This document shows, piece after piece, positions 6,560 to 50,220 of a stretch of DNA of 64,000 bases (position 1 is the first letter of the stretch; each line of letters opens with the position of its first letter). Under the pieces are notes generated by a model, which ran no database searches, was not told the origin of the DNA, and saw nothing but the letters and a program-made list of their open reading frames with translations. A program made the translations under genes and the position numbers. This stretch comes from an uncultured Bacilli bacterium (lineage in GTDB: Bacteria; Bacillota_I; Bacilli_A; RF39; UBA660). The stretch is from contig CANRAF010000002.1 in assembly GCA_947628535.1 (NCBI GenBank), positions 41,200-105,199 on the forward strand. The letters are read 5' to 3'.

Positions 6560-6847
6560 TTAACTTGTTATGTAATCGTGATAACCTCCGAGAACATTTA
6601 CGACTTTATATCCCATATTATCTAATTTTGAACAAGTTTTTACACTTTCCATTCCTTGAGTACAGTATATATAATATTCTTTTGATTTATCTAAATATTT
6701 GCTTGGATCCATAAGTAGAAAATTATTTGGTATGTTTTTACTACTTGGAATGGATCCTAAATTATATAAATAATTTTTTCTAATATCTATTATATTTACT
6801 CTACCAACCATTCCTTTTAATTCACTTGCTTTTATGCTTTTATACAT
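6560..6847 (-). CDS. single-domain rhodanese-like sulfurtransferase
   Basis: 95 aa. Active-site cysteine loop YCTQGMES. Confidence 0.6.
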   Translation of the reverse strand: MYKSIKASELKGMVGRVNIIDIRKNYLYNLGSIPSSKNIPNNFLLMDPSKYLDKSKEYYIYCTQGMESVKTCSKLDNMGYKVVNVLGGYHDYITS

Positions 6848-6949
6848 AAATACTCCTCCTTTGTTATTTTATGAAAAAGTGAAAAAAATGATTGTATGAG
6901 CAATTTATATTTAGAAAAATAAATATTTTATATTTTTTGTTAAACTATT

Positions 6950-6982
6950 AAAAAACCCTTGAAATATAATAATTTCAAAGGT
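6950..6982 (-). terminator. rho-independent terminator after the T4SS coupling-protein gene
   Basis: Imperfect 9-10-bp stem CC(C)TTGAAAT ... ATTTCAAAGG, followed on the minus strand by TTTTTT. Confidence 0.5.
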
Positions 6983-6991
6983 TTATAATTT

Positions 6992-9301: not shown

Positions 9302-9326
9302 AGTTTACCCTCCCTTGGTTTATTTA

Positions 9327-11117
9327 TTATAGTCCTCCACCAGTTCCAAACGAATCTAATTCTTCTGGTGTAACTATTACTGTAATACGCATTCTACGGG
9401 ATCCACAAACAAATAAGGCTTCTCCCTGTGAATAACGTTTTATACTTTCTTTTTCATTATCATTTAAATCTATAAGCAATGAAAGATCTTCAACTGCTTG
9501 TTTTTTAAGGCCCATTACTAAATAATAAGATGCATTATCAAAGATTGCTTTTCCTTGAGTTATTACTGCCTGTGATGTAAAATCACTTGGTTGTTGTGTA
9601 ATTATTATATTTCCCGTATTGTATTTACGAGAACGTCTTTGAATTTGAGCTAAAAAGTCAGCTCCTAAAACATTTCCTCCAGAAAGAAGAACATGTGCTT
9701 CATCTACCATTAATACTGTGTTTTGTGTTGGGTCTAAACATAGACTCCAAGCATATTTTAAAACGTTAAATAATAGAGCATTTCTAATATTAACATCTGT
9801 ATTCATAAGTTCTCTAATATTGAATACTATGAAATTACTACGTGGTGATATAGTTGTTTTTCCATTAAAGTAAAATCTAAGTTCATTAGTAAGTGGTCTT
9901 ATTTTAAGTTCAAGCCTTTCCATTATATCACGTTCATGAGTCATATCTGTCATTGAAGTAAGTTTTCCTTTGATTGTTGTATATACGTCATCAAATGTTG
10001 GATAGTGTTCACTAGTAAATGTTGAAAAATCAGTATTAAATCCTATTCCAAATCTTTGATATGTCTCTTGAGTAAGTTCTATAAATAAATTAAGAACATC
10101 CTCTTCAATAGATGGATCATAGTATTTCATAAATGCTTTTAAAAACTGAAGTGTTTTGGTAAGAACTGTGTATCCAAGGCCTTGCCTTATTTCATCATCA
10201 TCAGCATCTATTAATACTTCAAATGGATTAATAAGTCCAAATTCGCCACCCTTTCCTAAATCTATTGTATCTCCACCAACGGCTTCAACCATTTCTTTAA
10301 GTTCGTTTTCAGGGTCGATTGCTACTATTTGATAACCGTTTCTTATAGCGGTTCTTAAAAGTAATTTAGCAGCAGTACTTTTACCTGAACCAGAAGTACC
10401 TAAAATAATCATATTAGCATTTACTCTGTTATGTTCTTTTCTCATTTGATATAGGAATTGGTTAAACATAACAACCCCACCAGAGAAATCTGTTCCAAGA
10501 AGAACTGAAGGCCCTGGATCTTTAATGCTATCAAATATATATGGATACATTCCAGCCATTGTAGGACTTGGCATAATTGTTCCAATTCGCTCTTCTACTT
10601 CTTGTTTTGGGAAAACTGGAATTATTGATTTTAAAACTTGTTCTTGTTCAAATCTTAAAGGAATTGCTCTAAGCTGCATAGCATCTAAATAGTTTTTAAC
10701 TTGAAGTTTTTTAAGATCTAAATCTTCTTTTGACTCGCCAGTTACTATAATATGCATTTGAAAATCAAACGTTTTTGATTGAGCAGCTGCAAGTTGTTGA
10801 ATGAATGATTCAAGTGTTTCATAGTCTTGTCTTATACTTTCTTGATATGTTGCATCTTTTTCTTCTTGATATCTTATTTTCATTGAAGCAAGTTCTTTAT
10901 TAAGCATTTTTGTTAAAGTTGAAAATGGTACAGGGATATGCTTAATTACTATTTTAACACCTGGCATATTAGTTATGTTTGATAAAAATCCTACACCGAC
11001 ATATCTAGGATAACCAACAACTGTTAAAATAGTCATGAATTTATCACTAGCAACTATCATGTTGCTGTTTGTAAAATCAAGCCCTTTTGGAGCCACTTCG
11101 CTTTTAAAGTAACTCAT
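9327..11117 (-). CDS. VirB4-family T4SS ATPase (TrsE/PrgJ/ConE-like), short 596-aa form
   Basis: Walker A GTSGSGKS; Walker B LMVDEAH. Has its own RBS GGAGGGG. ATGA start/stop overlap with the upstream 233-aa ORF. Confidence 0.8.
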   Translation of the reverse strand: MSYFKSEVAPKGLDFTNSNMIVASDKFMTILTVVGYPRYVGVGFLSNITNMPGVKIVIKHIPVPFSTLTKMLNKELASMKIRYQEEKDATYQESIRQDYETLESFIQQLAAAQSKTFDFQMHIIVTGESKEDLDLKKLQVKNYLDAMQLRAIPLRFEQEQVLKSIIPVFPKQEVEERIGTIMPSPTMAGMYPYIFDSIKDPGPSVLLGTDFSGGVVMFNQFLYQMRKEHNRVNANMIILGTSGSGKSTAAKLLLRTAIRNGYQIVAIDPENELKEMVEAVGGDTIDLGKGGEFGLINPFEVLIDADDDEIRQGLGYTVLTKTLQFLKAFMKYYDPSIEEDVLNLFIELTQETYQRFGIGFNTDFSTFTSEHYPTFDDVYTTIKGKLTSMTDMTHERDIMERLELKIRPLTNELRFYFNGKTTISPRSNFIVFNIRELMNTDVNIRNALLFNVLKYAWSLCLDPTQNTVLMVDEAHVLLSGGNVLGADFLAQIQRRSRKYNTGNIIITQQPSDFTSQAVITQGKAIFDNASYYLVMGLKKQAVEDLSLLIDLNDNEKESIKRYSQGEALFVCGSRRMRITVIVTPEELDSFGTGGGL

Positions 11118-11815
11118 ATTGGCATCACCCCTCCAGATTCATATTTTTTTCCTCCATTTAAGAAGTTATCTATTATCATTCTAAGATCGTCATTTGATGT
11201 TTGACTTGCCACAAGACCGGCACTGGCTAAACTATTTATCAAATTACGAAGTCTTTTTTGTAAAAGTTCTCCATTTTTTTCTTTAAACAGAATAAAGTAT
11301 TCAGTATCTACAACATCATTATTGATAAAATATTCTCCTTTTTGCATATCTTGTGAGATGAGTTTTCTTATTCTTTGATCTTGATTTTTATTATAAAGAA
11401 CTTGAAGTTCTGCTTGATAAACTGCGATATCTACAGGACGATCTGCTACTACTAACCAAAATTCAAAATCAATAGTGTTATAGAAATTCATAAGTCCTAT
11501 TAATGCATTATCCATGGAAACTTGGTCTAATATGAAAATGTTTCTAGGTTGTATTTTAACACCTGTAATCATTTCATTTCTATTATTATACATAATTCCA
11601 TTACTAATAGCTTTAAGTGGTAACCAATTTTCTGTATATTTGGGATTTTTTTGAGCGGCTTTTGGCATAACTTTGCCACTTTGTTTATTTTCCTCATTAT
11701 TATTTACAGGTGTATTTATACTATTTATACCCGAATTAACACTTTGATTTACTTGCCCATTTCCCGAATTATTCATCTGATTGTTCATATTTATAACACC
11801 AACCTCTCCATACAT
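11114..11815 (-). CDS. T4SS-associated protein of unknown function, translationally coupled to virB4
   Basis: 233 aa with an N/Q/S-rich low-complexity N-terminus and no TM segment. Its stop overlaps the virB4 start (ATGA). Might be a detached VirB4 N-terminal-domain-like protein. Confidence 0.4.
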   Translation of the reverse strand: MYGEVGVINMNNQMNNSGNGQVNQSVNSGINSINTPVNNNEENKQSGKVMPKAAQKNPKYTENWLPLKAISNGIMYNNRNEMITGVKIQPRNIFILDQVSMDNALIGLMNFYNTIDFEFWLVVADRPVDIAVYQAELQVLYNKNQDQRIRKLISQDMQKGEYFINNDVVDTEYFILFKEKNGELLQKRLRNLINSLASAGLVASQTSNDDLRMIIDNFLNGGKKYESGGVMPI

Positions 11816-12089
11816 ATTTTCTTCGGTTTACAAAGTAAAATTTATACATTTCATGAATAAATACTCTTGAATTATGATAATTTGCAATTGGGAATACTAG
11901 AAATGCTGAGATAAAGGCAGGAGTTAAAGTTATTATTGCTGCCCAAATCTCAATTATTGGGAGTATTGTAAAGAGTATAAATGATATTAATATTCCACTT
12001 GCCAATATTATCAAATCAAGTTTACTTAAAAAACCAAATATTAAACCTTGTTTTTTACTATTAGCAGGTACTAAATAATTGTAATCCAT
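11769..12089 (-). CDS. PrgI/TcpE-family small membrane protein (VirB3-like)
   Basis: 106 aa with two long hydrophobic helices. N-terminus YLVPANSKKQGLIFGF fits the PrgI-family pattern. Lies just upstream of the VirB4 gene, as VirB3 homologues do. Confidence 0.5.
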   Translation of the reverse strand: MDYNYLVPANSKKQGLIFGFLSKLDLIILASGILISFILFTILPIIEIWAAIITLTPAFISAFLVFPIANYHNSRVFIHEMYKFYFVNRRKYVWRGWCYKYEQSDE

Positions 12090-12112
12090 GTAGTATCACA
12101 TCCTTTTTATTA

Positions 12113-14659
12113 TTAACTTTTTTTAGAATAGTCATCAAACGCTTTTGCTTTACCATATTCAGTAGATTTTTGAACTGCAATAATTTCATCACTGTATTGA
12201 TTAGATTTATCTCTTGCAATTCCTTCTACATCTTCATATGCTGCAAAAGTTTGAACATCTCTTTCAGTTTTTCCAAGTTCTCTTTGAAGTGCTGTATTAA
12301 CTCTAAGTTCTGTCCTCATTTCTGTTTCGGCTTGTTCAATTTTTCCTTTTGCTGATTGTTCAAAATCTATTGATAAAACTTGTCCATTAGCACCAACATA
12401 TTTATCCGATTGACCAGAATCTATCCATTGTTGCCCATCATAATATTCAATATTGCCTTGACTATTTTTTCTATTTGTTTCATTTAAAGCAATGAAATCA
12501 CTTCGTTCTTTTTTGTAACCAGCTTTTCCTGTTTTTGTTACTTGATTACCATTTGCATCTATATACGTATAAGTATAATTATCTGGATCAAGTTCTAATT
12601 TTCTCTTTTTATCAGATAAAAAATTGGAACTCTCTGCTAAATTTTCTATATTATCTTTATGTTTTCTAAAATTGTCTAGTAATTCCTTTTTATCTACTTT
12701 ATCTTTAATTTGATTATCCATTTTAGTTTTTGGAGAATAACCTACAGTTCCTGCTACTCCTGCCACTGTTCTTTGCCAAAAACCTAATCCATTTTGCTTG
12801 GCATCATTTATTCTTGCATTCTTAGCAGCAATCTGGTTGGATCCACCTGTTATATTTCCTTTGGAGCCAGAACCTGCTCCTAAGGCTGCACCTTTAAAAG
12901 CACCACTTATTCTTCCAAGACCTTTCCCTGTTGCAAATCCAACAGCAGTTCCAAGTGCTCCGCCTGCGGCAAATCCTGCTGCACTTTTACCCATATTCAT
13001 AATATCTTTAAATGAACTTCCCATAGAATCAAGTCCAAATAATTTAGAAATCATACTAGGTAAAGCTTTTGCAAATACTAAAATTGCTACAATATAGAAA
13101 AATTTAATTAATAAGTTTTGTTCCCAAAAACTTTCTGATATTAATTTTAAAAGATCTACTGCAATAGCAATTGCAAACAACTTTATAAATAAATCTACAT
13201 AAATAGAAAGATACATTTTAACCCATTGATTAAATATTTTATCTTTGGGATTGACATAACTTATAATTGGAATTGGTGCAAGCATTTCGAGTAATAATAA
13301 TTTAAATCTACGGATAATTATATCAATACATAGAATAAGTAAATATACTATTAATCCAATACCAGCAACTAATGAAGCAATAAATCCTAAATTCAAAGTA
13401 TCATCTGACATTAATTCTATAATATTATCATTTGCTTCTGAGTTCTCAAACATATGTTCTTGCGCATTTTTACATTTTTCTTCTGACTCTTCATCTTCTG
13501 CACATTCTTGAAACGTTTTTGCAGTTGTTTGAGCAAACTTAATAGCTTCGTAAGAATGTTTTTCGCTTAATCCCTTAAAATATTTTTTACCACCATCAAA
13601 AGCACTAGTACTTGTATTTTTACCTATAAATAAATTATTAGTTTCAACCGAATGACTTGCTTGTTGCCCACTTGCATTCATCTTAAGGCCTTTAATCGCT
13701 TTTTCAAAATCATTATAGTTATTGTACCCTCCCATAATACCTATATTTTTACACGTTTGCGGTCCACTTGCAGTTACTACTTCAGAATCACAACCATCTA
13801 TTTCACCTTTAGGCATTGATTTTTGTGCCGAATATGTACTATCGCTTGTTTTTTTTAAATATTTTGGACAAGTAGTAGGAAAATTAGAAGAAGTTACATT
13901 AAATACAGTACCCATTGTTATTTTACCAGGGAAAGGTGAATAATAACCATTATCTGAATCTCCGTGAATTCGCTGATCACTTCTATCATAATAAGAAAAT
14001 TTGCATGTACCATCTCCACAATTTAATTTCCCAGTTGGCCCAGTATCTGGGTTATTATAAAATTCAATCTTATATACATCATTTATTACATAAGAATGGG
14101 TCCAATTAGTACCCACTAAATTTTTCTTATGTGATTTAACATTTATGTAATAACAAGTTAACTTTTCATTTGCAGCATAAACATCATCCACAAGTAATTT
14201 AGATTTAGAACTCATATTATCTGAATGTTTTTCTTTTATACTACTAACAGGCATTAATCGATTTATCAGACCATCATCAGCGAGAATTGCCTGTTCAACT
14301 TCAATTAATAAACCGTCCTTTTTATTAAAAATTATAAAATCTGGCGATAACGCTATTAATAGAATTATACATGTTACAATACGCTTTATCATTTTACCTG
14401 CGCCAGCTTCTTTGTCACTTACTGTATCAGGATTAATAATCATTTGAAGCATACCTATTGTAACTCTAAATAGCATAAATACCCCTGCTAACACGTATAT
14501 TGTTTGGGTAAAATTAAAGTTTAAACTAGCAAATGCATTACCATCGTTACGAACTAACTCTAATAAAATATCATATATTCTAGCAACTAATGTGTATAGG
14601 CCTGCAATTATATTAAATAAAACACTTGCAACAATTTCATTAAATAACAATATTTGCAT
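12113..14659 (-). CDS. VirB6/TrbL-like polytopic T4SS channel protein with a large Cys-rich extracytoplasmic domain
   Basis: 848 aa. N-terminal TM helices; a hydrophilic domain of about 280 aa with at least 12 Cys (CGDGTC, TTCPKY, DGCDSE, QTCKNIG, FQECAEDEESEEKCKN); 5-6 more TM helices; a Gly-rich segment; and a hydrophilic C-terminal extension of about 270 aa. RBS AGGAGG. Confidence 0.55.
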   Translation of the reverse strand: MQILLFNEIVASVLFNIIAGLYTLVARIYDILLELVRNDGNAFASLNFNFTQTIYVLAGVFMLFRVTIGMLQMIINPDTVSDKEAGAGKMIKRIVTCIILLIALSPDFIIFNKKDGLLIEVEQAILADDGLINRLMPVSSIKEKHSDNMSSKSKLLVDDVYAANEKLTCYYINVKSHKKNLVGTNWTHSYVINDVYKIEFYNNPDTGPTGKLNCGDGTCKFSYYDRSDQRIHGDSDNGYYSPFPGKITMGTVFNVTSSNFPTTCPKYLKKTSDSTYSAQKSMPKGEIDGCDSEVVTASGPQTCKNIGIMGGYNNYNDFEKAIKGLKMNASGQQASHSVETNNLFIGKNTSTSAFDGGKKYFKGLSEKHSYEAIKFAQTTAKTFQECAEDEESEEKCKNAQEHMFENSEANDNIIELMSDDTLNLGFIASLVAGIGLIVYLLILCIDIIIRRFKLLLLEMLAPIPIISYVNPKDKIFNQWVKMYLSIYVDLFIKLFAIAIAVDLLKLISESFWEQNLLIKFFYIVAILVFAKALPSMISKLFGLDSMGSSFKDIMNMGKSAAGFAAGGALGTAVGFATGKGLGRISGAFKGAALGAGSGSKGNITGGSNQIAAKNARINDAKQNGLGFWQRTVAGVAGTVGYSPKTKMDNQIKDKVDKKELLDNFRKHKDNIENLAESSNFLSDKKRKLELDPDNYTYTYIDANGNQVTKTGKAGYKKERSDFIALNETNRKNSQGNIEYYDGQQWIDSGQSDKYVGANGQVLSIDFEQSAKGKIEQAETEMRTELRVNTALQRELGKTERDVQTFAAYEDVEGIARDKSNQYSDEIIAVQKSTEYGKAKAFDDYSKKS

Positions 14660-14674
14660 AATTAACCTCCTATA

Positions 14675-15004
14675 CTATAGCCCTATTTTACAAACACCAG
14701 ATGTTAGTCCTGCCATATACAATATAAAATTCAAAACTACTGGAACAAAAAAGATTGCTACTCCAATTACAATTCTTTTTACTGTTCTTGTAAGAGCAGT
14801 TTTCATATCTTTTTCTTCTTGAGAAATTACTGCCTGAACCATATCAACACTACATAAAGCAATTACTAAACATGGTGTTGCTATTTGTATCCAGGAAAAT
14901 ACTTTTGTTAAAATATCTCTAAAGTCAGCTCCAAGTAAATTACAATCACTTTGAGTAGGAAAATTAACTAAAAAATTTATATTGTTAATTATAAAATCTA
15001 ACAT
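14675..15004 (-). CDS. small two-helix membrane protein, VirB2/TrbC-like putative T4SS pilin (paralogue 3)
   Basis: 109 aa. Shares the second-helix motif IGVAIFFVPVV with the two upstream paralogues; Cys near the C-terminus (SGVCKIGL). Confidence 0.4.
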   Translation of the reverse strand: MLDFIINNINFLVNFPTQSDCNLLGADFRDILTKVFSWIQIATPCLVIALCSVDMVQAVISQEEKDMKTALTRTVKRIVIGVAIFFVPVVLNFILYMAGLTSGVCKIGL

Positions 15005-15095
15005 TTAAATCACCTTCACAGTATTCATCTATTTTATTATAACAAAAAAAAAAGCACAAGACAATAAGTTTTGTACTTTTATTTACATATTTTTA

Positions 15096-15512
15096 TTAAC
15101 TTTTACCCTTACATGAATTGGCATTAGGCTTTGACACACAAGCTAAACATTTATTGTAATTATCATCAGCTTGGTTCTCTGCTCCAGATACCATACCAAA
15201 TATTATTTGTACAATAACTACTACAAAGAATATTGCTACCCCATAAATAATTCTCATAAGTAACATTTTTTGGGCTTCTTTTATTTTTTTATCTTCTCCA
15301 GCCATTACTGCTTTACCTAAATCAATTGTACCAAGTAAAACGATAATTACGGGGATAATGATTTTCATTACATTTACTATTTGTCCAACAAATTGCCAAA
15401 TTATTAAAGTTTTTTCACAAAAATTATCTGATGTTTGTAGTGTTGCACCACTACCAGCTTTTGCTAAAAACTGAATAATATCCATTGGCATTGCACTTAA
15501 AAATTCTAACAT
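15096..15512 (-). CDS. small two-helix membrane protein, VirB2/TrbC-like putative T4SS pilin (paralogue 2)
   Basis: 138 aa. IIPVIIVLLGTIDLGKAVMAGEDKKIKEAQK is nearly identical to the loop of 15585..16022. C-terminal tail CLACVSKPNANSC. Confidence 0.45.
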   Translation of the reverse strand: MLEFLSAMPMDIIQFLAKAGSGATLQTSDNFCEKTLIIWQFVGQIVNVMKIIIPVIIVLLGTIDLGKAVMAGEDKKIKEAQKMLLMRIIYGVAIFFVVVIVQIIFGMVSGAENQADDNYNKCLACVSKPNANSCKGKS

Positions 15513-15584
15513 ATTAATCTCTCCTTCTATCTATAACTATAATACTATATATAATACTGCTGTGTCAAACATTTTTTTTTAATT

Positions 15585-16022
15585 TTACACTTCTTCTCTT
15601 CCATATAAATTATCTTGGTTTATATCTTCATTTTCTTGTTGACTATTTTCATCATAATTATTTATCTCATTTTCTTGATTACTTTTAGATTCTTCAACAT
15701 ATTTTAAACAATTTTTGCTGTGTGGTTTAGTTGCACATTCCCAGCATATTTTATAATCACCTTCATCTGTTTCAACTCCGAGAAGGCCAAATATTACTTC
15801 TACAATTGTAAATATAAAGAATATTGCTACCCCATAAATTAATCTTCTAATGAATGCTTTTTGGGCTTCTTTTATTTTTTTATCTTCTCCAGCCATTACT
15901 GCCTTACCTAAATCAAGCGTACCTAAAAGAATAATTATAACTGGTATAATAATTCTAATTATATATATAATTTCACCGACAAAATTCCATGCGGCAGCAC
16001 TATCGGCACAAAAGGTATCCAT
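15585..16022 (-). CDS. small two-helix membrane protein, VirB2/TrbC-like putative T4SS pilin (paralogue 1)
   Basis: 145 aa. Helix-loop-helix IIPVIIILLGTLDLGKAVMAGEDKKIKEAQK. C-terminal CWECATKPHSKNC tail followed by an acidic N/E-rich end. RBS GGTGG. Confidence 0.45.
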   Translation of the reverse strand: MDTFCADSAAAWNFVGEIIYIIRIIIPVIIILLGTLDLGKAVMAGEDKKIKEAQKAFIRRLIYGVAIFFIFTIVEVIFGLLGVETDEGDYKICWECATKPHSKNCLKYVEESKSNQENEINNYDENSQQENEDINQDNLYGREEV

Positions 16023-38161: not shown

Positions 38162-38190
38162 AAAAAGGACTTTTTAGTCCTAATGTTCGT
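38160..38190. terminator. bidirectional terminator between the vanY-like gene and the lipoprotein gene
   Basis: AGGACT-tttt-AGTCCT flanked by A7 and T-rich sequence. Confidence 0.5.
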
Positions 38191-38896
38191 ATAATCCATG
38201 TATTTTTTGTCTAGTTATATCATCAATTTCGTTTAAAGTCCACTTACCATCTACTTTTGTTAGTGTAAAATCAATTGTATATTTTACTCTGTCTTTTGCA
38301 TCCTTTAATTTTTCAAGTCTATATTCTACATACTTAGCATCTGATGCAATATCATCAGCAGCATCTTCTGTTTTATCTTTTGCATCACTTACTGCATCTT
38401 TAGCAGAATCTACTGCATCCTTTGCTGCGTCCTTAACTGAACCTGCTGCATCTTCTACTTTATCTTTGGTTTCTTCGGCAATTGTTTCTACAGCATCATC
38501 ATTATCACTAGTGTTATCTTTAAATTCATCTGGATTGTTTTTGTAGTATTCTTCAGCGTCTTTATTTATTTTATAATAATCATAAACTTCAATTTCAGCA
38601 GTTACTGTTGCTGTATCACCATTGATAACTTCATCTTTGATTTCATAAGTTAAATCTTGATATTGCTTTTTCATAATATCTGAATATGTAGTTTTTTGAT
38701 CATCATCCATTAACGAATCAGAATCTACCATTTCTTTTAATTGTTCAATAACTGTTTCATCTTGGTTTTTATAATTATCTAAGAAATTTTCAACCTTTTT
38801 AGTTGGTGTATTATCCATTGAACAACCACTCAATAATACAATAGCCATAATACATGAAAAACATAATATTAATTTCTTCATAAAAAATCCTCCCAT
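38180..38896 (-). CDS. lipoprotein with acidic Asp/Ala/Lys-rich repeat region
   Basis: Lipobox LLSGC. The likely start is MKKLIL. Repetitive DAAKDAVDSAKDAVSDAKDKTEDAADD segment. Confidence 0.5.
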   Translation of the reverse strand: MGGFFMKKLILCFSCIMAIVLLSGCSMDNTPTKKVENFLDNYKNQDETVIEQLKEMVDSDSLMDDDQKTTYSDIMKKQYQDLTYEIKDEVINGDTATVTAEIEVYDYYKINKDAEEYYKNNPDEFKDNTSDNDDAVETIAEETKDKVEDAAGSVKDAAKDAVDSAKDAVSDAKDKTEDAADDIASDAKYVEYRLEKLKDAKDRVKYTIDFTLTKVDGKWTLNEIDDITRQKIHGLYEH

Positions 38897-38927
38897 TTCT
38901 AGTGTGAGAGAATTTTTTTATTTTATA

Positions 38928-39695
38928 CTATATTTCATTTAATTTATTCTTTTTGATTTTTAAAATTATTACAAATATTACGCCTGCAATAGCGATAATT
39001 CCTACTACTGTTAACCCAATTGTTAAAACTGAGTTATTTTTTTCTTTTTGCTCTTTATTATTTTCAGTATCATTTATATTTGTCTCATCTTCATCTATTT
39101 GAGGATCATTAATTTCTTCATCTATTTCATCCATTGGTTCAGTTTCTAACTCTGGGATTTTTGCTGAAAATGATAAATTAAAATCTTTGCTATCTACATT
39201 CCAAGTATATTTATTTCCGTTAATTGAATCAGCGTTAGAGTCTAATACATTTAAGTCTGTTGTTATATTTACCATTATATTATCTGCTCTTTTAAGACAA
39301 AAGAAAGGACTACTTAATTCTATTGATATTTCTCCATCATTATTTGAAAAATCAAATGTATTAAAGCATTCATTAATTATTCTTTCACTTGTTACAAAGA
39401 TCGATGAAAAATCATTTTTTAAAGTAATAATATACTCATCATTAGCTATTCTTTTTGTTTTTGTATATTTTACACTATCATTATTATCAAAATATATTGG
39501 GCCATTCACTACTGATGTTAAAAAATCATAGTTTCCAGAAGTATCAAGTTCACTCTTTTTTACTTTATAAACTATAGTTTCATGAAAATATATATTTTTA
39601 TCAATAGTCAAATTATAGTTTATACTGCTTGCATTAACATTACTTATTCCAAATAATAATAAAGTAAGAATTAATATATAATATCTCAATTTCAT
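38928..39695 (-). CDS. secreted protein with C-terminal TM anchor (tail-anchored; paralogue A)
   Basis: Signal peptide, then a C-terminal hydrophobic helix and a basic tail ending NEI. Shares VLDSNADSINGNKYTWNVDS with the neighbouring paralogue. Confidence 0.4.
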   Translation of the reverse strand: MKLRYYILILTLLLFGISNVNASSINYNLTIDKNIYFHETIVYKVKKSELDTSGNYDFLTSVVNGPIYFDNNDSVKYTKTKRIANDEYIITLKNDFSSIFVTSERIINECFNTFDFSNNDGEISIELSSPFFCLKRADNIMVNITTDLNVLDSNADSINGNKYTWNVDSKDFNLSFSAKIPELETEPMDEIDEEINDPQIDEDETNINDTENNKEQKEKNNSVLTIGLTVVGIIAIAGVIFVIILKIKKNKLNEI

Positions 39696-39705
39696 ATAGT
39701 CCTCC

Positions 39706-40446
39706 TTAAATTTCTGAAGCTTTTTTGGATTTAAGCTTTAAAATGAAAATTGTTATTAATACAATTACTCCTATAATAACTCCTATAGCTATAAAAATAG
39801 ATTGATTATTTTTATTATTGTTATTTCTTTCTGATGTAGAATTTGTATCATTATAATTCTTTTTATCTTCTTCATTTGTTTTATATGATTTGCTTTTATC
39901 AATTACAAAATATATACTTATATTTCTAGAATTAGAATTGTTTATCTTCCATGTATATATATTATCATTTTCATTTATAGTATTAGCATTACTATCTATT
40001 ACTTTGTATGGCGTAATTACATTAATGCTGATATTAGAAAAACTACATATTAAACCACTACTAGTAGAAAAAGTAATATTGTTTCCTTCTTCAATAATAT
40101 TGTAATAGTTAAAACAATTTCTTATCATTGAAGATCTAGTATGACTTTCAAAATCAAATTCTGCATTTGCTGTAAAACTTTTTTTTGAATCATCAAAACT
40201 AACATTATAATACTCAACACCAGATTCTTTTTCTCTTTTTTGCGCAAATGGATTTTCTAATTCTTGATCATAATACAAAGGAAGTGGAAAACCATTCCAG
40301 TTTTTAAATTCTGAATATTCTGAAGAATTACTAGCTGTAGCTGTTATATTTTCAGTTACTTTATTATCATCAATATTTATATTAACATTAGCTGAACAAC
40401 CTGTTAAACAAAAAAGTATCCCAAATAAAACTATTTTTTTTTTCAT
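39706..40446 (-). CDS. lipoprotein/secreted protein with C-terminal TM anchor (paralogue B)
   Basis: Lipobox LTGC. C-terminal TM plus basic tail ending SEI. VIDSNANTINENDNIYTWKIN matches the paralogue A motif. Confidence 0.4.
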   Translation of the reverse strand: MKKKIVLFGILFCLTGCSANVNINIDDNKVTENITATASNSSEYSEFKNWNGFPLPLYYDQELENPFAQKREKESGVEYYNVSFDDSKKSFTANAEFDFESHTRSSMIRNCFNYYNIIEEGNNITFSTSSGLICSFSNISINVITPYKVIDSNANTINENDNIYTWKINNSNSRNISIYFVIDKSKSYKTNEEDKKNYNDTNSTSERNNNNKNNQSIFIAIGVIIGVIVLITIFILKLKSKKASEI

Positions 40447-40456
40447 TATAACACCT

Positions 40457-42976
40457 CTACTTTGTTATTATCCAAAATCCGCTAGCTTCAGGAACAATGA
40501 CCTTATCAAAATTCCATTTTTTACTATTTTTCTTACCAGATGGATCTTGAACCATTACTTCTTTACCATCAGAACCTGTAAGAACAATAAAGTGTCCATT
40601 CTTAGTAAATGTTCCCGGTCCCATTGATGCAATAACTAAAGCGTTTCCTTTGTTAAGAGCTATTAAAACTTCATCTGAGTTTTTAACATCAACAGTTTTC
40701 ACCTTAAGTCCATATTTTTTACCTGCTTCAGTGAAGAATTCCCATACAGTACCAATCTCTCTACAATAATTATTTGAACAAGCAAAATTTGTAAGCTCAA
40801 CTGGATCATGTTTTTCGTTTAATAAACTTGAAGCTACAATAGCCATAGAAGTTGGTCCACAACCATGAGTTGCTATAGTTCCATATGAGCCATAAGGCTC
40901 TTGATAATCTGTTTGGTAATAAACCCATATTTTGCCATTAAAACTATTCTTTCCTAAAACACATGTATTAGAAGAACCTGTTATCTCAACTCCATCTGAA
41001 TAAAAATATTTTAAAATTTCATCAAATTTTTTTCCTTCATCTTGCATTTGTCTGGCAACTAGTTGGCTCATTCCATAAGCATGTCCTTTTCCATTTAATG
41101 ATCCATTAACAACTGTTTTACTATGTGGTGAATTAATTGTGATTTTATGTGTTTCTTTATTGGGCAATCTAGTATAAGTAGCTGTACACGTAGTGCCATT
41201 ACATTTTGCATCTGGGCAATCCGTATCGTTAATACAAAATGCATCATACATTGAAGAAAATACTTTTCCATCGTATCTTAAAAGCATTCCTGATGTCTCA
41301 TCTGCAGCCTTTTTAGCCTTTTCATTTGGATTTTCAGTAAATACTTGGGCACTTGTACTATTTTCAATTTTAGATGAACAATTTTTCGTTGCATTAACAG
41401 CATATGTTCTTGAAGCAATAGCTTGTGCTTTCATATTTTCAAGATTATCACCGTCATAGTAAGAATTTTCTCTTGAAACAACTCCAGCTACATAATCATC
41501 AAGTTTTAATGTCCCTACACCACTAACAGTTATTCCATTGGAGCAATAATCAGCGGAATTCCCACTTGTACCACTTGAATCACAACATCTTTCTTCAGAT
41601 GTAATGGAACCACTTGATTCATAGTCAGAAGTATCATTTGCAGCATTAGCACTATCTCCTGCTGGTTCACCATCCCACATACTACCACAATTTTTTTTGA
41701 AACCTTCATAATCTAGAAAATAATCAACATAACCATATACAAGTTTATTATTTATTTTCATTCCAAAATGTAGATGATTCCCTGAAGAGTTACCTGAACT
41801 TGCAACATTACCAATAAGTTGGCCTTTACCTACTTTATCACCTTTTTTTACTTTTATTGAACCATTAATCATATGATAATAATGTGTTTCTATTTTTCCA
41901 CCATGTAGAATCCTTACATAATTACCCATTGTCCAGCCACATTGGTCACCTGTATGAGTATTAGCATCAAAACAACCATCATGAGTTTCTGTTACTACTC
42001 CTGATTGAACAGCATACACTGGAGTTCCTCTTCCTATTGCTAAATCTATACCATGATGAGTACTGCCCCATCTTGGCCCAGGTTTACTAGTTATTGTATA
42101 ACTAAACTTTTTCCCTAATGGATTTTGCATTTTACATAAAAACTCTTTTTCATCTCCCGAACCACTATAATCTTCTCCATTATAAGTACTTCCTGAACTT
42201 CCATCTGAAGAGCACATTAATCCAGTTAAACCTGCTGCTGTACCACCAAAAATTGCAAGAAAGATAAGTAATGCTATAATCATTAAAGGTATAAGACTTA
42301 TAGCTATTATTTTAACTTGTATTGGCGCTATCATCCATAATGCTCTTATTCCTTTTTGCTTCATTTCATTTAAATTAGGAGCTACAACATCATTTTGATT
42401 TTCTTTATCTTTATTATTTTTATTATCTTGTTTATTATTCTTTAGTCTGTTAAGGGGATTTAGTCTTGAAAGTCCAAGTCCTGTTCCATTATTTTTTCTC
42501 CCTAATTGTTTACCATCATTATTATTGGCATTATTTGTATTTTTAGGACTTTGTGGCCCTTTGTTATTTTCATTTTGTTTTGAATTATTAGGATTGTTTC
42601 CTTTATTTTTATTTGTTCCTCCACCAGGTAAAGGATTTTTTTTATTACTATTTTCCCTATCAGGATTATTTCCTTTATTTTTATTATCTGTATTTCCCTT
42701 ATTTTTATTAGGAGTATTTTTATTTTTATTATTTTTTAAACCTAGAGCAGGGTTTCTACCATTTGAACCATTTTTTACGCCAGATGCTAAACCTTTCCCA
42801 AAAGTTGATACTTGATTCATAGAATTTGAACCATTAAAATTTTCATCACCAGAATCAATATTTATTCCATTGTCATTAAAACTATTATCATTATGATAAT
42901 CATCTGAATTTTGAGATGTAGGTAGTTCACTATTTGCTGTTTTTCTTTTTGCTTCTTCATTATCCAAGTTTATCAC
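40457..42976 (-). CDS. multidomain peptidoglycan hydrolase: N/K/G-rich N-terminal region, TM, M23 (LytM) peptidase, SpoIID/LytB domain, C39-like cysteine peptidase; candidate T4SS cell-wall hydrolase (PrgK/CwlT functional analogue)
   Basis: M23 motifs HHGIDLA and GNHLHFG. SpoIID-like DYVAGVVSRE...AQAIASRTYA. C-terminal GCGPTSMAIVAS ... GHFIVLTG, giving a Cys/His papain-fold pair. About 200-aa low-complexity N-terminus followed by a TM helix (LIPLMIIALLIFLAIFGG). Confidence 0.6.
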   Translation of the reverse strand: MINLDNEEAKRKTANSELPTSQNSDDYHNDNSFNDNGINIDSGDENFNGSNSMNQVSTFGKGLASGVKNGSNGRNPALGLKNNKNKNTPNKNKGNTDNKNKGNNPDRENSNKKNPLPGGGTNKNKGNNPNNSKQNENNKGPQSPKNTNNANNNDGKQLGRKNNGTGLGLSRLNPLNRLKNNKQDNKNNKDKENQNDVVAPNLNEMKQKGIRALWMIAPIQVKIIAISLIPLMIIALLIFLAIFGGTAAGLTGLMCSSDGSSGSTYNGEDYSGSGDEKEFLCKMQNPLGKKFSYTITSKPGPRWGSTHHGIDLAIGRGTPVYAVQSGVVTETHDGCFDANTHTGDQCGWTMGNYVRILHGGKIETHYYHMINGSIKVKKGDKVGKGQLIGNVASSGNSSGNHLHFGMKINNKLVYGYVDYFLDYEGFKKNCGSMWDGEPAGDSANAANDTSDYESSGSITSEERCCDSSGTSGNSADYCSNGITVSGVGTLKLDDYVAGVVSRENSYYDGDNLENMKAQAIASRTYAVNATKNCSSKIENSTSAQVFTENPNEKAKKAADETSGMLLRYDGKVFSSMYDAFCINDTDCPDAKCNGTTCTATYTRLPNKETHKITINSPHSKTVVNGSLNGKGHAYGMSQLVARQMQDEGKKFDEILKYFYSDGVEITGSSNTCVLGKNSFNGKIWVYYQTDYQEPYGSYGTIATHGCGPTSMAIVASSLLNEKHDPVELTNFACSNNYCREIGTVWEFFTEAGKKYGLKVKTVDVKNSDEVLIALNKGNALVIASMGPGTFTKNGHFIVLTGSDGKEVMVQDPSGKKNSKKWNFDKVIVPEASGFWIITK

Positions 42977-43055
42977 CTGCCTTATAGTTAGTTATAACAA
43001 TAGTATATCATATAATACGACAAAAAAAAAGAAAAGAAATTTATATTTAATATTT

Positions 43056-45446
43056 CTAATCTTCTATTTTATATTTTTTAAATATGAAGTATCCTCCACC
43101 ACCTATTAAAAGTGCTCCTATTAATACTGTACTTATAGCTATTACACTTCCTGTATCTGGTGCTTTTATTTTTTTAACTTCATTAAATATTTTTAAATGA
43201 TCTAAATCTGTATCTCCATTATCTTTTGATCTATCTAATTTATATAAATTTGATTTTGCACTTGTTAAGTTTACATTACCATTTGAAAGAACTCTAAATT
43301 TTACTTCTGTTTTTAAAGCTTGATATCCTTTTGGTGCTACTTTTTCTGTTAAAGTGTAATCCCCTATTGGAATGTTGAATTCTTTAGGTTCTTTACCTGA
43401 TTTATATTTTAGGAATACTTCTCCTTTTTCATTTTTAATTTCTATTGTTGCTCCAGGAAGTTCTTTTTTATCTGTTATTGATTGTTTACTTATTTTCATA
43501 TCTATTGGCTTGTTTGTTACACTTAAGGTTACTCTCTTTTGAACTTGTCCTGGAATATCTTCTTCTTTTAATCCTTCAAATAAACTTGTATCTCCTTCAA
43601 TATATTTTGTCATTAAATCTTTATCTGTTTCATCTACTTTTAAATCTTTATTTAAATCTGATGCGTAAAATTGTAATGGTGTTTCTTCTATTTCTTCTGC
43701 TATTATTTGTTCTATTATTTTTAAATCATCATTATTTATTTTTCCATCATTTGTTGGATCTCCAAGTTTATATTTTTCAAGAGGTAACATAGGTTCATTT
43801 TCATCTGGTACTGCTTCTGTTCCTTGTTTTACAAATTTTAAAGCATCATTATCTTTACTTAATGTAAAATAAAGTGGTTCTTCAAGTACTTTGTACCAAT
43901 CATTTGCTTTTACTTCTTCTAAAATATAATCTCCATATGGGATATTTTCAAATTCTGCTATTCCTCTTTCATTTGTTATTACATTTGCTACTTCTTTTCC
44001 ATTTATGTCTACTGCTGGAGTTTGTTCTCTATTATCTTGTAGTAATTTAAATTCTACTCCTGCTATTACTGCACCTGTTTCATCATCTTGTTTTAAAATA
44101 GTTACATTACCATATGGAATATTATATAAGGCTTGTACTTCTTCACGATTTGCTTCAATTTCTTCGTTTTGTGGTTTTAAAATTATTGGAATACACAAGT
44201 TTTTAGCTCCAATACTTTCAGATTGTTCTGTATCAACTACATACCCTTCAGGTACTTTTGTTTCTTTTACATAATATGTTTTTTGAGCTGCTTTATCAAG
44301 TGGATAATATAAATTATCCCATGATACTTCTCCATTTTTATTAGTTTCTTTATCTGGAAGAGCATTTCCTAAATAATCTGTTGCTTTAGTTGTACATGCA
44401 TCATCTGTAAATATTCCAAATGTTGCGCCTTGCATATTTTTTCCAGTATATTTATCTATTTTATGAAGTCTAATTTTTCCTTTTCCGATTTCTTGATATT
44501 TATACCCAACATAACCAGTTACTGTTTTAGTGGTTGGAGGAGTAATATATGTAGTTTGTTGTAAATCTTTATCGTTACGAGTATATACTTTCCCACCTGT
44601 TTTAAATACTTTTGACATACTAATTGGGGTTGTTACACTATCATTTTTTGAAGTAATTGTTAATGTTTGCCCACTTTTATTTAGAGTAATACCACTTGGG
44701 GCTGTTCCTAGAGTATATGTTGAAAATACTCCGCGCGAATCTGTTTTATTATTTGTAAAATGATGATTTGCTTCTACATATTTAAGTTCCATTCTATTTG
44801 GATCTTGCAATGCTGCTTGACTTGTATCAAAAGCAAAACTTGGAATTAAATTATGATTTAATACATCTTCTCTTATTTCTACTACTTTCTCTGCAACACT
44901 TGATGCCAAACTACCTGATAATAAACTTTGTATTTGCGATTTAGTAAGTGTTCTCCATTCTTTCGTATCATCAGCAACTTCTTTTGATACAAAATGTACT
45001 AAAACTTGAGTAGCTAATCTTGAAACGGTACATTTATTTTCATTTAAATCACTTTCAGTTTCTTCAGCATAATATCCGTAGGCAAGGGCTCTAGCCATTA
45101 AACTACTATCAACATTGTCATCTGATGAAACATAATCAGGGCCAGTTAAAGTGTCTGAATGATTTAAACTAGGCATACCTTCTTCTGTACAATATACAAC
45201 GTGTCCGTTTGCATTATATATAGTTACATGATTTATGACACCATCGTAGTAACCTGAATTTTTTACACTATTTTTTACAGCATACTTACCATAACTCTCA
45301 TGCAATCCTATTGAACTTGTGCTACATTGCTGATAATGAATAGTTGCGGCGTATACATTTTCTGATATAAAAATACCAATTATTAAAGTCAATGCTATCA
45401 TAAAATATAAATTTATATGCTTTATATGTTTAGACATATCTATCAC
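43056..45446 (-). CDS. cell-wall-anchored adhesin-like protein: signal peptide, CnaB/SpaA-type domains, dockerin-like Ca-binding repeats, C-terminal sorting-signal-like APDTG + TM + KKYK
   Basis: CnaB-like GKIRLHKIDKYTGKNMQGATFGIF and GNVTILKQDDETGAVIAGVEFKL. Dockerin-like DPTNDGKINNDDLKIIEQII and DLNKDLKVDETDKDL. C-terminus KAPDTGSVIAISTVLIGALLIGGGGYFIFKKYKIED. Confidence 0.55.
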   Translation of the reverse strand: MIDMSKHIKHINLYFMIALTLIIGIFISENVYAATIHYQQCSTSSIGLHESYGKYAVKNSVKNSGYYDGVINHVTIYNANGHVVYCTEEGMPSLNHSDTLTGPDYVSSDDNVDSSLMARALAYGYYAEETESDLNENKCTVSRLATQVLVHFVSKEVADDTKEWRTLTKSQIQSLLSGSLASSVAEKVVEIREDVLNHNLIPSFAFDTSQAALQDPNRMELKYVEANHHFTNNKTDSRGVFSTYTLGTAPSGITLNKSGQTLTITSKNDSVTTPISMSKVFKTGGKVYTRNDKDLQQTTYITPPTTKTVTGYVGYKYQEIGKGKIRLHKIDKYTGKNMQGATFGIFTDDACTTKATDYLGNALPDKETNKNGEVSWDNLYYPLDKAAQKTYYVKETKVPEGYVVDTEQSESIGAKNLCIPIILKPQNEEIEANREEVQALYNIPYGNVTILKQDDETGAVIAGVEFKLLQDNREQTPAVDINGKEVANVITNERGIAEFENIPYGDYILEEVKANDWYKVLEEPLYFTLSKDNDALKFVKQGTEAVPDENEPMLPLEKYKLGDPTNDGKINNDDLKIIEQIIAEEIEETPLQFYASDLNKDLKVDETDKDLMTKYIEGDTSLFEGLKEEDIPGQVQKRVTLSVTNKPIDMKISKQSITDKKELPGATIEIKNEKGEVFLKYKSGKEPKEFNIPIGDYTLTEKVAPKGYQALKTEVKFRVLSNGNVNLTSAKSNLYKLDRSKDNGDTDLDHLKIFNEVKKIKAPDTGSVIAISTVLIGALLIGGGGYFIFKKYKIED

Positions 45447-45502
45447 TCCTATTCTCTAAAACTATTATAACTTGAAAAATTAACTAAATCAATAGTTTTT
45501 TA

Positions 45503-46141
45503 TTACTTTTCAGTTAAATTAGCATTTGAAAGGAGCAGTATTTCAAATAGATGTTTATGTCTTTTTTCAAAATTTTTTAAACTTTCTTTTAAATATTTAT
45601 ATGCATATTCAAAATTACTACTTTCTTTATTTGTAAATTCATAATATAAATAAAGAAGTTTATCATAATTTTTATTTAAAAATAAATCATCTATCTCCTC
45701 ATTAAGTCTTTTCCTCATATCTTTTTCTTTTCTCGTTAAACTATCTTTTTCTTTATTTATTTCTCCATTTTGTACATATTTTACATTAGTATACTCAAGA
45801 CTTTCAGCAATTTCTAAAACCTCTCTTTCTTCATCTATTAAAAGTCTTGAAAATAAAATAGGCATACTTTCTTTTATTAAAACTCCTATTGCAATTAGTC
45901 CATCAGTAAAAAGACAAATACTTCCAGCATCTTTCATTCCATTCATTTCATATTTAGGAACTTTAGAAGAAAAGTCACTTGAAAATATTACTTTTTTATA
46001 AAGTATATCTTCTATAACTTTAGTATCTACTTTAAATAAAGTTACTTTTTTTATATATTTAATACTATCAGTATCTTCCCATTCAAAAAATTCAATTAAA
46101 TCTTCATTAAAGTTAAGTAAAATATCATAAATATAAGCCAT
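45503..46141 (-). CDS. hypothetical cytoplasmic protein
   Basis: 212-aa ORF with no recognised motif. Confidence 0.3.
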   Translation of the reverse strand: MAYIYDILLNFNEDLIEFFEWEDTDSIKYIKKVTLFKVDTKVIEDILYKKVIFSSDFSSKVPKYEMNGMKDAGSICLFTDGLIAIGVLIKESMPILFSRLLIDEEREVLEIAESLEYTNVKYVQNGEINKEKDSLTRKEKDMRKRLNEEIDDLFLNKNYDKLLYLYYEFTNKESSNFEYAYKYLKESLKNFEKRHKHLFEILLLSNANLTEK

Positions 46142-50143: not shown

Positions 50144-50220
50144 TGGCGCGCCCAGAAGGATTTGAACCCTCAACCTCTTGGTCCGTAGCCAAACGCTCTA
50201 TCCAATTGAGCTATGGGCGC
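50144..50220 (-). tRNA. tRNA-Arg (anticodon ACG)
   Basis: Minus-strand 77-nt cloverleaf GCGCCCA-TA-GCTC...GAGC-G-TTTGG-CTACGGA-CCAAG-AGGTT-GAGGG-TTCAAAT-CCTTC-TGGGCGC-G-CCA. The anticodon loop CT-ACG-GA gives anticodon ACG; the CCA end is encoded. Confidence 0.9.

Follow-up and report, generated by a model that had tools for sequence, protein, structure and literature searches.

A membrane-anchored hydrolase with M23, SpoIID and C39_2 domains is the probable VirB1 equivalent of a chromosomal type IV secretion system of uncultured Bacilli from the gut

The 64-kb stretch analysed here (called the window; positions 41,200 to 105,199 of contig CANRAF010000002.1 from an uncultured Bacilli bacterium) carries a gene whose product combines a long N-terminal tail, a transmembrane (TM) helix and three predicted peptidoglycan-cleaving domains. 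This gene belongs to a six-gene run at 38180-46141 on the reverse strand, which encodes successively a 212-aa protein, a SpaA adhesin, the hydrolase and proteins of 246, 255 and 238 aa; the intergenic gaps are of 10-79 nt and the run closes with a terminator-like hairpin. The window also holds a Gram-positive-type type IV secretion system (T4SS) gene set at 6560-16022 on the same strand, and the hydrolase gene lies outside this set. Coordinates are given in Table 1.

The GTG start of the hydrolase open reading frame (ORF) falls within the Shine-Dalgarno-like sequence AAGGCAGGTGAT, and the TTG at 42967, three codons further, is better spaced from this sequence. A public protein (P0001) of 836 aa that begins at this TTG is 100% identical to the window hydrolase. 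TTG 42967 is the likely true start, the difference between 839 and 836 aa being trivial. Residues 1-205 comprise 58 Asn, 25 Lys and 21 Gly, and the only strongly hydrophobic stretch of the N-terminal part (residues ~215-250) follows the K-rich tail; residue composition and hydropathy thus agree with the original prediction, made from the sequence alone, of an N/K/G-rich N-terminus and a single TM helix. Because short motifs of the tail (DNSFN-QGI, NPALG, NPLPG and RLNPLNR) are conserved among orthologs, this region is more than low complexity and its motifs suggest docking in the cytoplasm. All catalytic domains are C-terminal to the helix, as for the N-terminal anchor of VirB1-like proteins, and the predicted topology places the tail in the cytoplasm and the three enzymes outside the membrane, anchored by one helix.

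Pfam searches assigned Peptidase_M23 (PF01551) to residues 306-412 (E 3.7e-22), SpoIID (PF08486) to residues 487-568 (E 5.6e-13, 49.8 bits for a cutoff of 23) and Peptidase_C39_2 (PF13529) to residues 686-812 (E 7e-16). The NCBIfam model TIGR02669 (SpoIID_LytB) scored 93.0 bits, for a cutoff of 83.3, in two stretches extending up to about residue 665. The layout proposed originally, with M23, SpoIID/LytB and papain-fold cysteine peptidase domains on one chain, is therefore recovered, both SpoIID/LytB profiles being above cutoff in the central region. The motifs quoted for the M23 domain (H307xxxD311 and H401xH403) and for the cysteine peptidase (GC706GPTS and GH795FIVL) are present as well; these matches and motifs are far beyond chance. 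The C-terminal domain had been described as either C39-like or CHAP-like: the first term stands, whereas CHAP (PF05257) gave no match in the hydrolase at E<=1 in the Pfam search. The same search revealed no SLT or Glucosaminidase match, the middle domain being SpoIID.

In an alignment of 43 homologs (A1), residues Y495, V499, E503, E513, K516, A517, Q544, H632, G635, S637 and Q638 are invariant, and the window hydrolase possesses the catalytic Glu and the EALKAQAxAARTY and GHGxGMSQ motifs that define the SpoIID/LytB family. E503 aligns with E101 of the Clostridioides difficile SpoIID (5txu; phmmer alignment), whose counterpart in the Bacillus subtilis SpoIID is E88. Experiments have defined E101 as the catalytic glutamate of the C. 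difficile protein (PMC6221140). The alignment includes 19 three-domain sequences, namely the window protein and 18 orthologs that are 45-65% identical overall. In 19/19 of them, the M23 residues H307, D311, H368, H401 and H403, the SpoIID residue E503 and the C39_2 residues Q688, C706, H795 and D811 are unchanged. Judged by these residues, all three active sites are intact, and the SpoIID domain is a putative lytic transglycosylase.

Structure prediction led to the same assignments, since the AlphaFold2 models match solved structures of M23, SpoIID and C39-like enzymes. The mean predicted local distance difference test (pLDDT) value was 85.4 for residues 281-839 and 91.6 for residues 476-839, poor prediction being confined to two interdomain linkers. 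When compared to the PDB with Foldseek, the M23 part matched Campylobacter/Helicobacter-type peptidoglycan peptidases, 6jmx, ShyA, LytM and lysostaphin. The top matches of the middle domain were the SpoIID structures 4rwr and 5i1t (B. anthracis, C. difficile; E ~1e-7, probability 1.00), with TM-scores that are modest because a two-domain query was used and the middle domain is shorter than its counterparts in the solved structures. The C-terminal domain matched the pseudomurein endoisopeptidase PeiR and a B. anthracis C39-like peptidase, 3erv, and further the phytochelatin-synthase-like Alr0975, the ComA/PCAT1 peptidase domains (ComA PEP) and staphopains.

To place the middle domain within its family, 1.84 billion cluster representatives were scanned with HMMER using a 195-aa domain query. 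SpoIID-like clusters numbered 5005 at E<=0.001, 288 at E<=1e-10 and 85 at E<=1e-30, and the top matches were almost all proteins of 400-1250 aa with the SpoIID domain in mid-chain. From these counts and this placement, the compact SpoIID is therefore a small and distinct subfamily. It almost invariably has a peptidase or amidase (M23, CHAP, NlpC/P60, M15_4, VanY or C39_2) fused to it or encoded nearby. When the SpoIID domain was used in tblastn searches, 72,556 plasmids yielded no close homolog and five weak matches (31-34% identity), all in records typed as non-mobilizable, four of which are 1.4-5.5 Mb long; 50,697 phage records yielded none.

Could the protein be a true SpoIID, that is, a sporulation engulfment or cortex hydrolase? 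The domain family is indeed SpoIID/LytB, and spore genes are found close to the T4SS in some relatives (SpoVA in L093, CotZ in L010 and YunB in L096). However, the score against the spore_II_D equivalog TIGR02870 is only 72.3 bits for a cutoff of 234.75, the domain belongs to the compact 190-aa subtype delimited above, a chain made of a 210-aa tail plus M23 and C39 does not resemble SpoIID, and all sampled members of the compact subtype are in T4SS operons. The sporulation-specific enzyme that had been named as the refuting alternative of the original prediction is thus extremely improbable. The spore genes mentioned are SpoVAC/AD/AEB (L093, 18545-20333), CotZ (L010, 16790-17635) and YunB (L096, 17147-17494). 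Parts of the lineage probably sporulate, and in such genomes a true SpoIID may coexist with a T4SS-type SpoIID domain.

Homologs retrieved with the catalytic part as query split into two groups. The first (~37 clusters, 42-64% identical in the best local alignment) has the M23-SpoIID-C39_2 layout and comes entirely from metagenomes or metagenome-assembled genomes (MAGs), the closest MAGs being labelled 'Tenericutes' or 'Bacilli'. Three of its loci (L001, L004 and L012) are syntenic with the window, in the order UppP, 210-aa gene, adhesin(s), hydrolase, three small genes, VanY, DacF, ..., MutL. In the second group, a SpoIID domain 45-58% identical to that of the window is joined to other wall enzymes: CHAP, CHAP plus NlpC/P60, M15_4, VanY, a C-terminal M23 or C39_2 alone.

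Nine loci of the second group were inspected (L006, L008, L010, L013, L014, L015, L093, L096 and L097). In 9/9 of these relatives outside the window clade, the compact-SpoIID hydrolase is encoded in a T4SS operon homologous to that of the window, and in 7/9 its gene is immediately 3' of VirB4. The order is VirB6-like, PrgI-like, TraC-like, VirB4, hydrolase, a gene of ~216-264 aa and the type IV coupling protein (T4CP), where the contig or operon includes the latter. Two variants were observed: in L015, ~2 kb and the lipoprotein gene precede the hydrolase, and L097 has the M23 and SpoIID modules on separate genes. Homology between the nine operons and the window T4SS set extends gene by gene, with identities of 70-74% for VirB4, 46-59% for T4CP, 51-64% for TraC-like and 42-50% for PrgI-like proteins.

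The hydrolase of these operons has a companion. A lipoprotein with homology to each of the two window proteins of 246 and 255 aa (E 1e-8 to 1e-17) accompanies it in 8/9 operons, the exception being L093, where the neighbouring 264-aa gene shows no recognisable homology (13% identity). Homologs of this companion share a lipobox, two conserved Cys, an NA..YTW motif and a C-terminal TM helix. The gap from VirB4 to T4CP in the window measures 25 nt and contains no gene, so that the hydrolase slot is empty, and the T4SS operon is without any other hydrolase. The hydrolase and lipoprotein pair missing from this junction is the pair found at 38928-42976. A further relative, L092, whose VirB4 is 92% identical to that of the window, shows the order UppP (BacA), ortholog of the 212-aa gene, two unrelated genes, a thioredoxin gene and pilin-like genes. 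There, the ortholog of the 212-aa gene lies upstream of the T4SS pilin-like genes, four genes from the first of them, and the markers flanking the two loci of the window (BacA and the 212-aa gene for one, thioredoxin and the pilin-like genes for the other) are within 3 kb of each other.

Table 1. Features of the hydrolase, of its locus and of the T4SS gene set in the window (all on the reverse strand)
Feature	Position	Strand	Remarks
Three-domain peptidoglycan hydrolase, whole ORF	40457..42976	-	839 aa from GTG; probable start TTG 42967 (836 aa)
N/K/G-rich N-terminal region, predicted cytoplasmic and disordered	42347..42976	-	residues 1-210
Single TM helix	42227..42334	-	residues ~215-250; hydropathy and conserved PIQVKI... 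segment
Peptidase_M23/LytM domain	41741..42061	-	residues 306-412; intact H307xxxD311, H368, H401xH403
Compact SpoIID/LytB-type putative lytic transglycosylase domain	40973..41545	-	residues 478-668; predicted catalytic Glu503
Peptidase_C39_2 papain-fold cysteine peptidase domain	40460..40921	-	residues 686-839; Gln688, Cys706, His795, Asp811
212-aa DUF3603-like protein	45503..46141	-	first gene of the conserved locus
796-aa surface protein	43056..45446	-	three SpaA (prealbumin-like) domains, dockerin-like module, C-terminal xPxTG sorting signal
246-aa lipoprotein	39706..40446	-	lipobox, C-terminal TM; homolog of the 216-244-aa hydrolase-companion gene of T4SS operons
255-aa paralog of the partner protein	38928..39695	-	signal peptide, C-terminal TM
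238-aa acidic lipoprotein	38180..38896	-	last gene of the conserved locus
Terminator-like hairpin and T-run	38166..38181	-	directly 3' of the 238-aa gene
Three tandem small two-TM paralogs (109, 138, 145 aa)	14675..16022	-	weak T4SS_pilin likeness
VirB6/TrbL-like polytopic membrane protein, 848 aa	12113..14659	-	
TraC-like 233-aa gene and PrgI/VirB3-like 106-aa gene	11114..12089	-	
VirB4-like ATPase, 596 aa	9327..11117	-	25 nt from the T4CP gene
T4CP (VirD4/TraG-type), 769 aa	6992..9301	-	
Rhodanese-domain protein, 95 aa	6560..6847	-	3' of the T4CP gene

The link to the T4SS on which the original prediction depended is hence not visible in the window itself but is provided by the operons of 9/9 relatives and by the lipoprotein partner. 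Since position, partner gene and operon homology agree, we consider the hydrolase family as the VirB1-equivalent of this T4SS lineage. For the window protein, the reading that we favour, with a probability of roughly 0.78, is that of a VirB1-equivalent wall hydrolase serving the chromosomal Gram-positive-type T4SS of uncultured low-GC gut Bacilli, a system that would depend on it. Among the traits of Gram-positive VirB1-like hydrolases (ALPHA/BETA/DELTA classes), encoding within the T4SS cluster is seen in the homologs (9/9), the window gene being ~22 kb from its cluster and L092 connecting the two loci; as to the glycan-cleaving domain, the window hydrolase has SpoIID where these classes have one of SLT, lysozyme-like or GH73 type. 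Regarding the T4SS, the closest annotated plasmid system is that of pBMB67 (B. thuringiensis), whose VirB4 is 29% identical to that of the window and whose gene order is TrbL, PrgI, a hypothetical gene, VirB4 and then a 497-aa hydrolase with TM, GH73-like and NlpC/P60 parts. On the basis of VirB4 comparison (<=29% identity to plasmid VirB4s), the window T4SS is assigned to a separate family, whose usual glycan module is SpoIID. VirB4 of the window type has >7000 homolog clusters at E<=1e-30, and those among the matches listed are 73-96% identical.

How could the three enzymes work together? SpoIID, a lytic transglycosylase, acts only on glycan from which the SpoIIP amidase/endopeptidase has stripped the stem peptides (PMC6221140). 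Given this requirement for denuded strands and the fusion or adjacency of SpoIID to a peptidase or amidase here, we propose an ordered and self-contained demolition of peptidoglycan. The M23 zinc endopeptidase would cut the peptide cross-links, and the C39_2 papain-fold domain would trim or remove stem peptides, the role of CHAP or NlpC/P60 in other T4SS hydrolases; PeiR would be the structural precedent for a wall isopeptidase activity in a C39_2-type fold. The SpoIID-type domain would next cleave the denuded glycan strands, one polypeptide reproducing the sequential SpoIIP-then-SpoIID logic of the engulfment machine. A local gap in the wall would thereby be opened for the T4SS channel, beside the sortase-anchored SpaA adhesin, and one or both downstream lipoproteins may be obligate partners acting as scaffold or regulator.

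Several observations weigh against this assignment. The hydrolase gene is outside the T4SS operon, with ~22 kb of housekeeping genes between the two loci: the VirB6, PrgI, VirB4 and T4CP genes are ~22-30 kb away, past PBP2B, MraW, Ffh, RelA, MutL and others. The window has neither relaxase nor integrase; conjugation may therefore not be the function of the T4SS, whose need for a hydrolase would be presumed. C39_2 domains are without demonstrated peptidoglycan activity, the nearest solved analog cutting pseudomurein, and, since the flanking LytM and CHAP domains of PrgK are regulatory and not catalytic (PMC11323569), three intact sites are no proof of three activities. Two near-identical alleles, described below, carry very different M23 cassettes, a situation hard to explain for an enzyme acting only on its own wall. 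Finally, the immediate neighbourhood of the hydrolase gene is full of ordinary wall enzymes (VanY, DacF-like PBP5 and UppP).

This last point raises the question of a housekeeping autolysin, which would have moved away from the T4SS genes and been co-opted, with VanY, DacF and UppP, for growth, separation or wall turnover, with no role in secretion. The locus is embedded among wall-metabolism genes, and its stable synteny in relatives 42-50% identical suggests vertical inheritance. By contrast, the T4SS-specific lipoprotein partner is retained, and even duplicated here, together with the adhesin gene; the T4SS operon of the same genome would be left without a hydrolase; the boundary genes of both loci are adjacent in L092; and a long cytoplasmic tail whose motifs are conserved typifies T4SS hydrolases, not autolysins (PMC12857230). 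We therefore regard an autolysin as decidedly unlikely.

Comparison of the orthologs pointed to exchange of modules. The proteins P0017 (L001, 10001-12454) and P0037 (L004, 177-2603) occupy the same syntenic locus and are ~99% identical outside M23, whereas their M23 domains (residues ~237-390) are only ~35-40% identical, a clean cassette replacement. Across 33 orthologs, identity to the window protein was uncorrelated between domains (M23 versus SpoIID, r = -0.20; M23 versus C39, r = -0.07). In L094 (8691-11012; P0033), a GH73 Glucosaminidase stands in place of SpoIID while the C39 domain is 68% identical to that of the window; the order of this slot is BacA, 210-aa gene, SpaA adhesin, hydrolase and genes of 240, 259 and 220 aa. 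In L097 (5378-9260), the enzyme is split, within a T4SS operon, into a 647-aa M23 protein and a separate 419-aa secreted SpoIID protein encoded two genes further, with the lipoprotein homolog between them. CHAP is found in paralogous T4SS SpoIID hydrolases. It should also be noted that the best homolog of the hydrolase is 64% identical, versus up to 96% for homologs of VirB4. From these comparisons, the enzyme modules recombine as cassettes, as seen in the M23 swap between alleles and in the swap of SpoIID for GH73.

These exchanges are one ground for a trans-acting, 'offensive' hydrolase, in which the T4SS would be no conjugation machine but a contact-dependent device directed at other bacteria (DNA uptake or delivery, epibiosis or killing) and the enzyme would cut the wall of the partner, alone or in addition to its own. 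The allelic M23 swap, the uncorrelated domain identities, the replacement of SpoIID by GH73 in the same slot and the faster divergence of the hydrolase than of VirB4 would all fit, as would the absence of a relaxase in the window and near any of the sampled T4SS operons of relatives, and the sortase-anchored adhesin encoded directly upstream. In epibiotic Saccharibacteria, too, the chromosome keeps T4SS regions in which small secreted or pilin-like proteins are encoded in arrays (PMC7427843). However, the protein is TM-anchored like the cis-acting PrgK and TraG, it shows no recognisable T4SS secretion signal or pairing with an immunity gene, pressure from phages or host immunity on an exposed protein could equally cause modular diversification, and a relaxase may sit elsewhere in the genome. 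We hold this explanation to be unlikely. A related proposal, itself doubtful, is that the hydrolase serves as the wall-breaching head of a T4SS that is inherited vertically and has no relaxase in its neighbourhood, by which small-genome gut Bacilli would interact with other bacteria on contact rather than engage in classical conjugation of a plasmid or of an integrative and conjugative element (ICE), the exchangeable modules of the hydrolase (M23 alleles, SpoIID or GH73) being tuned to the wall chemistry of a partner or prey; if true, the system would correspond, on the Gram-positive side, to the T4SS that epibiotic Saccharibacteria retain.

Returning to the VirB1-equivalent hydrolase, its genomic context is chromosomal. 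The window, of ~26% GC, contains housekeeping genes for IF-2, NusA, RimP, PBP2B, MraW, MraZ, Ffh, RelA, TruB and MutL, as well as MurG, MurB, FtsQ, PyrH and RNase HIII, and 16 kb around the hydrolase gave no megablast match to the PLSDB plasmids, indicating that it is not a known plasmid. An origin of either locus from an ICE or prophage was considered and rejected, the window being without integrase, relaxase or flanking tRNA; its sole tRNA (50144-50220) is not at the boundary of either locus. The T4SS looks vertically kept, and possibly domesticated, in small-genome gut Bacilli. In L092, L093, L096 and L097, the operon is found at other chromosomal sites beside housekeeping genes, and in the window it is wedged between RimP/NusA/IF-2 and the dcw cluster. 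GC content is 0.31 in the hydrolase region (40001-42000) and 0.30-0.32 in the T4SS region (8001-14000), most of the window being at 0.23-0.28.

Within the T4SS set, the three pilin-like paralogs share a conserved LGKAVMAGEDKKIKEAQK loop, their Pfam T4SS_pilin match being weak and below threshold; in relatives, this two-TM module is also found as the C-terminus of proteins of 340-470 aa. The single-domain rhodanese gene (95 aa) follows T4CP also in L008, L013, L014 and L092 and appears to be a conserved member of the operon. At the hydrolase locus, all syntenic relatives have the SpaA surface protein gene directly upstream of that for the hydrolase, with a tandem duplicate in L001 (5084-9924); the dockerin-like module of the window protein is of the calcium-binding type and its sorting signal is conserved as (A/V)PxTG. 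The 246- and 255-aa partners gave no Pfam match, and a likeness to VirB8 was not established. A promoter scan was uninformative in this AT-rich window (54 sites for 58.7 expected).

If the favoured assignment is correct, SpoIID would be a fourth glycan-cutting solution among T4SS wall hydrolases, for which current schemes are limited to SLT, muramidase/GH73, CHAP, NlpC/P60 and LytM modules (PMC12857230), and a 'sporulation' domain would have been recruited for secretion in organisms common in gut metagenomes, as indicated by the >7000 VirB4 clusters. Since SpoIID needs denuded glycan and is almost obligatorily fused or adjacent to a peptidase or amidase, the self-contained, ordered demolition of peptidoglycan is a testable model. 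The exchange of cassettes between near-identical alleles further suggests selection on wall specificity, which bears on the actual function of these chromosomal T4SSs.

The system that the hydrolase most resembles in layout is PrgK of the Enterococcus faecalis plasmid pCF10 (DELTA-class), as the original prediction had stated. Both proteins have a long cytoplasmic (here predicted) N-terminus, a single TM helix and three extracellular modules in the same order, LytM/M23, glycan cutter and papain-fold cysteine peptidase. Both genes are close to surface adhesins, the xPxTG-bearing SpaA protein upstream in the window mirroring the adhesin-plus-channel organisation of pCF10. PrgK binds a small bitopic partner, PrgL (PMC11323569, PMC12857230), to which the window lipoprotein may be likened; the latter, however, is a lipoprotein with a C-terminal TM and has no detectable similarity to the VirB8-like PrgL. 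The 'SLT' domain of PrgK is now shown to be a lysozyme-like muramidase, its LytM domain being degenerate and its CHAP domain largely regulatory (PMC11323569). By contrast, the window protein has a SpoIID fold in place of this lysozyme-like MUR/SLT domain, C39_2 instead of CHAP and an intact M23 site, and its gene is outside a T4SS operon whose VirB4 is at most 29% identical to those of plasmid systems. The suggestion that it is a PrgK relative in which SpoIID had replaced SLT has to be abandoned, as it belongs to a separate T4SS family where SpoIID is usual; in the syntenic slot of the window, SpoIID is itself sometimes replaced, by a GH73 glucosaminidase.

TraG (pIP501), CwlT (ICEBs1), TcpG (pCW3) and the pBMB67 hydrolase (L095, 10959-12452) likewise combine a membrane-anchored glycan cutter with a peptidase, and their genes come right after VirB4 (TrbL-PrgI-x-VirB4-hydrolase), the slot of the SpoIID hydrolases in the related operons. 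They differ by their own glycan modules, SLT or GH73/lysozyme-like, and by their own peptidases, CHAP or NlpC/P60. In the 2025 review of T4SS nomenclature, SLT, MUR, CHAP and LytM are the only VirB1-like modules listed (PMC12857230). Full-text literature searches pairing SpoIID with T4SS or conjugation terms revealed no description of a SpoIID-type T4SS hydrolase, in line with the earlier judgement that the combination had not been described, and searches for RF39 with T4SS returned nothing relevant.

The nearest published mention concerns the polyvalent proteins of phages and conjugative elements, a few of which contain a SpoIID-like transglycosylase domain, reported in one sentence (Iyer et al. 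2017, PMC5512222). Such a domain is thus part of mobile-element proteins thought to breach peptidoglycan, but these are injected multi-domain conflict proteins and not membrane-anchored VirB1-equivalents. The Pfam code given there is PF07486 (PMC5512222). The SpoIID model matched by the window hydrolase is PF08486. We take PF07486 to be the SleB-like Hydrolase_2 family.

Finally, the SpoIID-SpoIIP (DMP) engulfment machinery of Bacillus and Clostridioides shares with the window hydrolase the SpoIID fold and the catalytic Glu, and in it an amidase/endopeptidase denudes the glycan before SpoIID cuts (PMC6221140), the order proposed here for a single chain. The SpoIID domain of the window is nevertheless ~80 residues shorter, belongs to a distinct subfamily and is without the His/Cys zinc motif found at that place in the C. 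difficile SpoIID. Whereas the activities of the engulfment machinery are on separate proteins held by SpoIIM and devoted to sporulation, those of the window type are fused on one chain, or encoded by adjacent genes as in L097, and tied to a T4SS.

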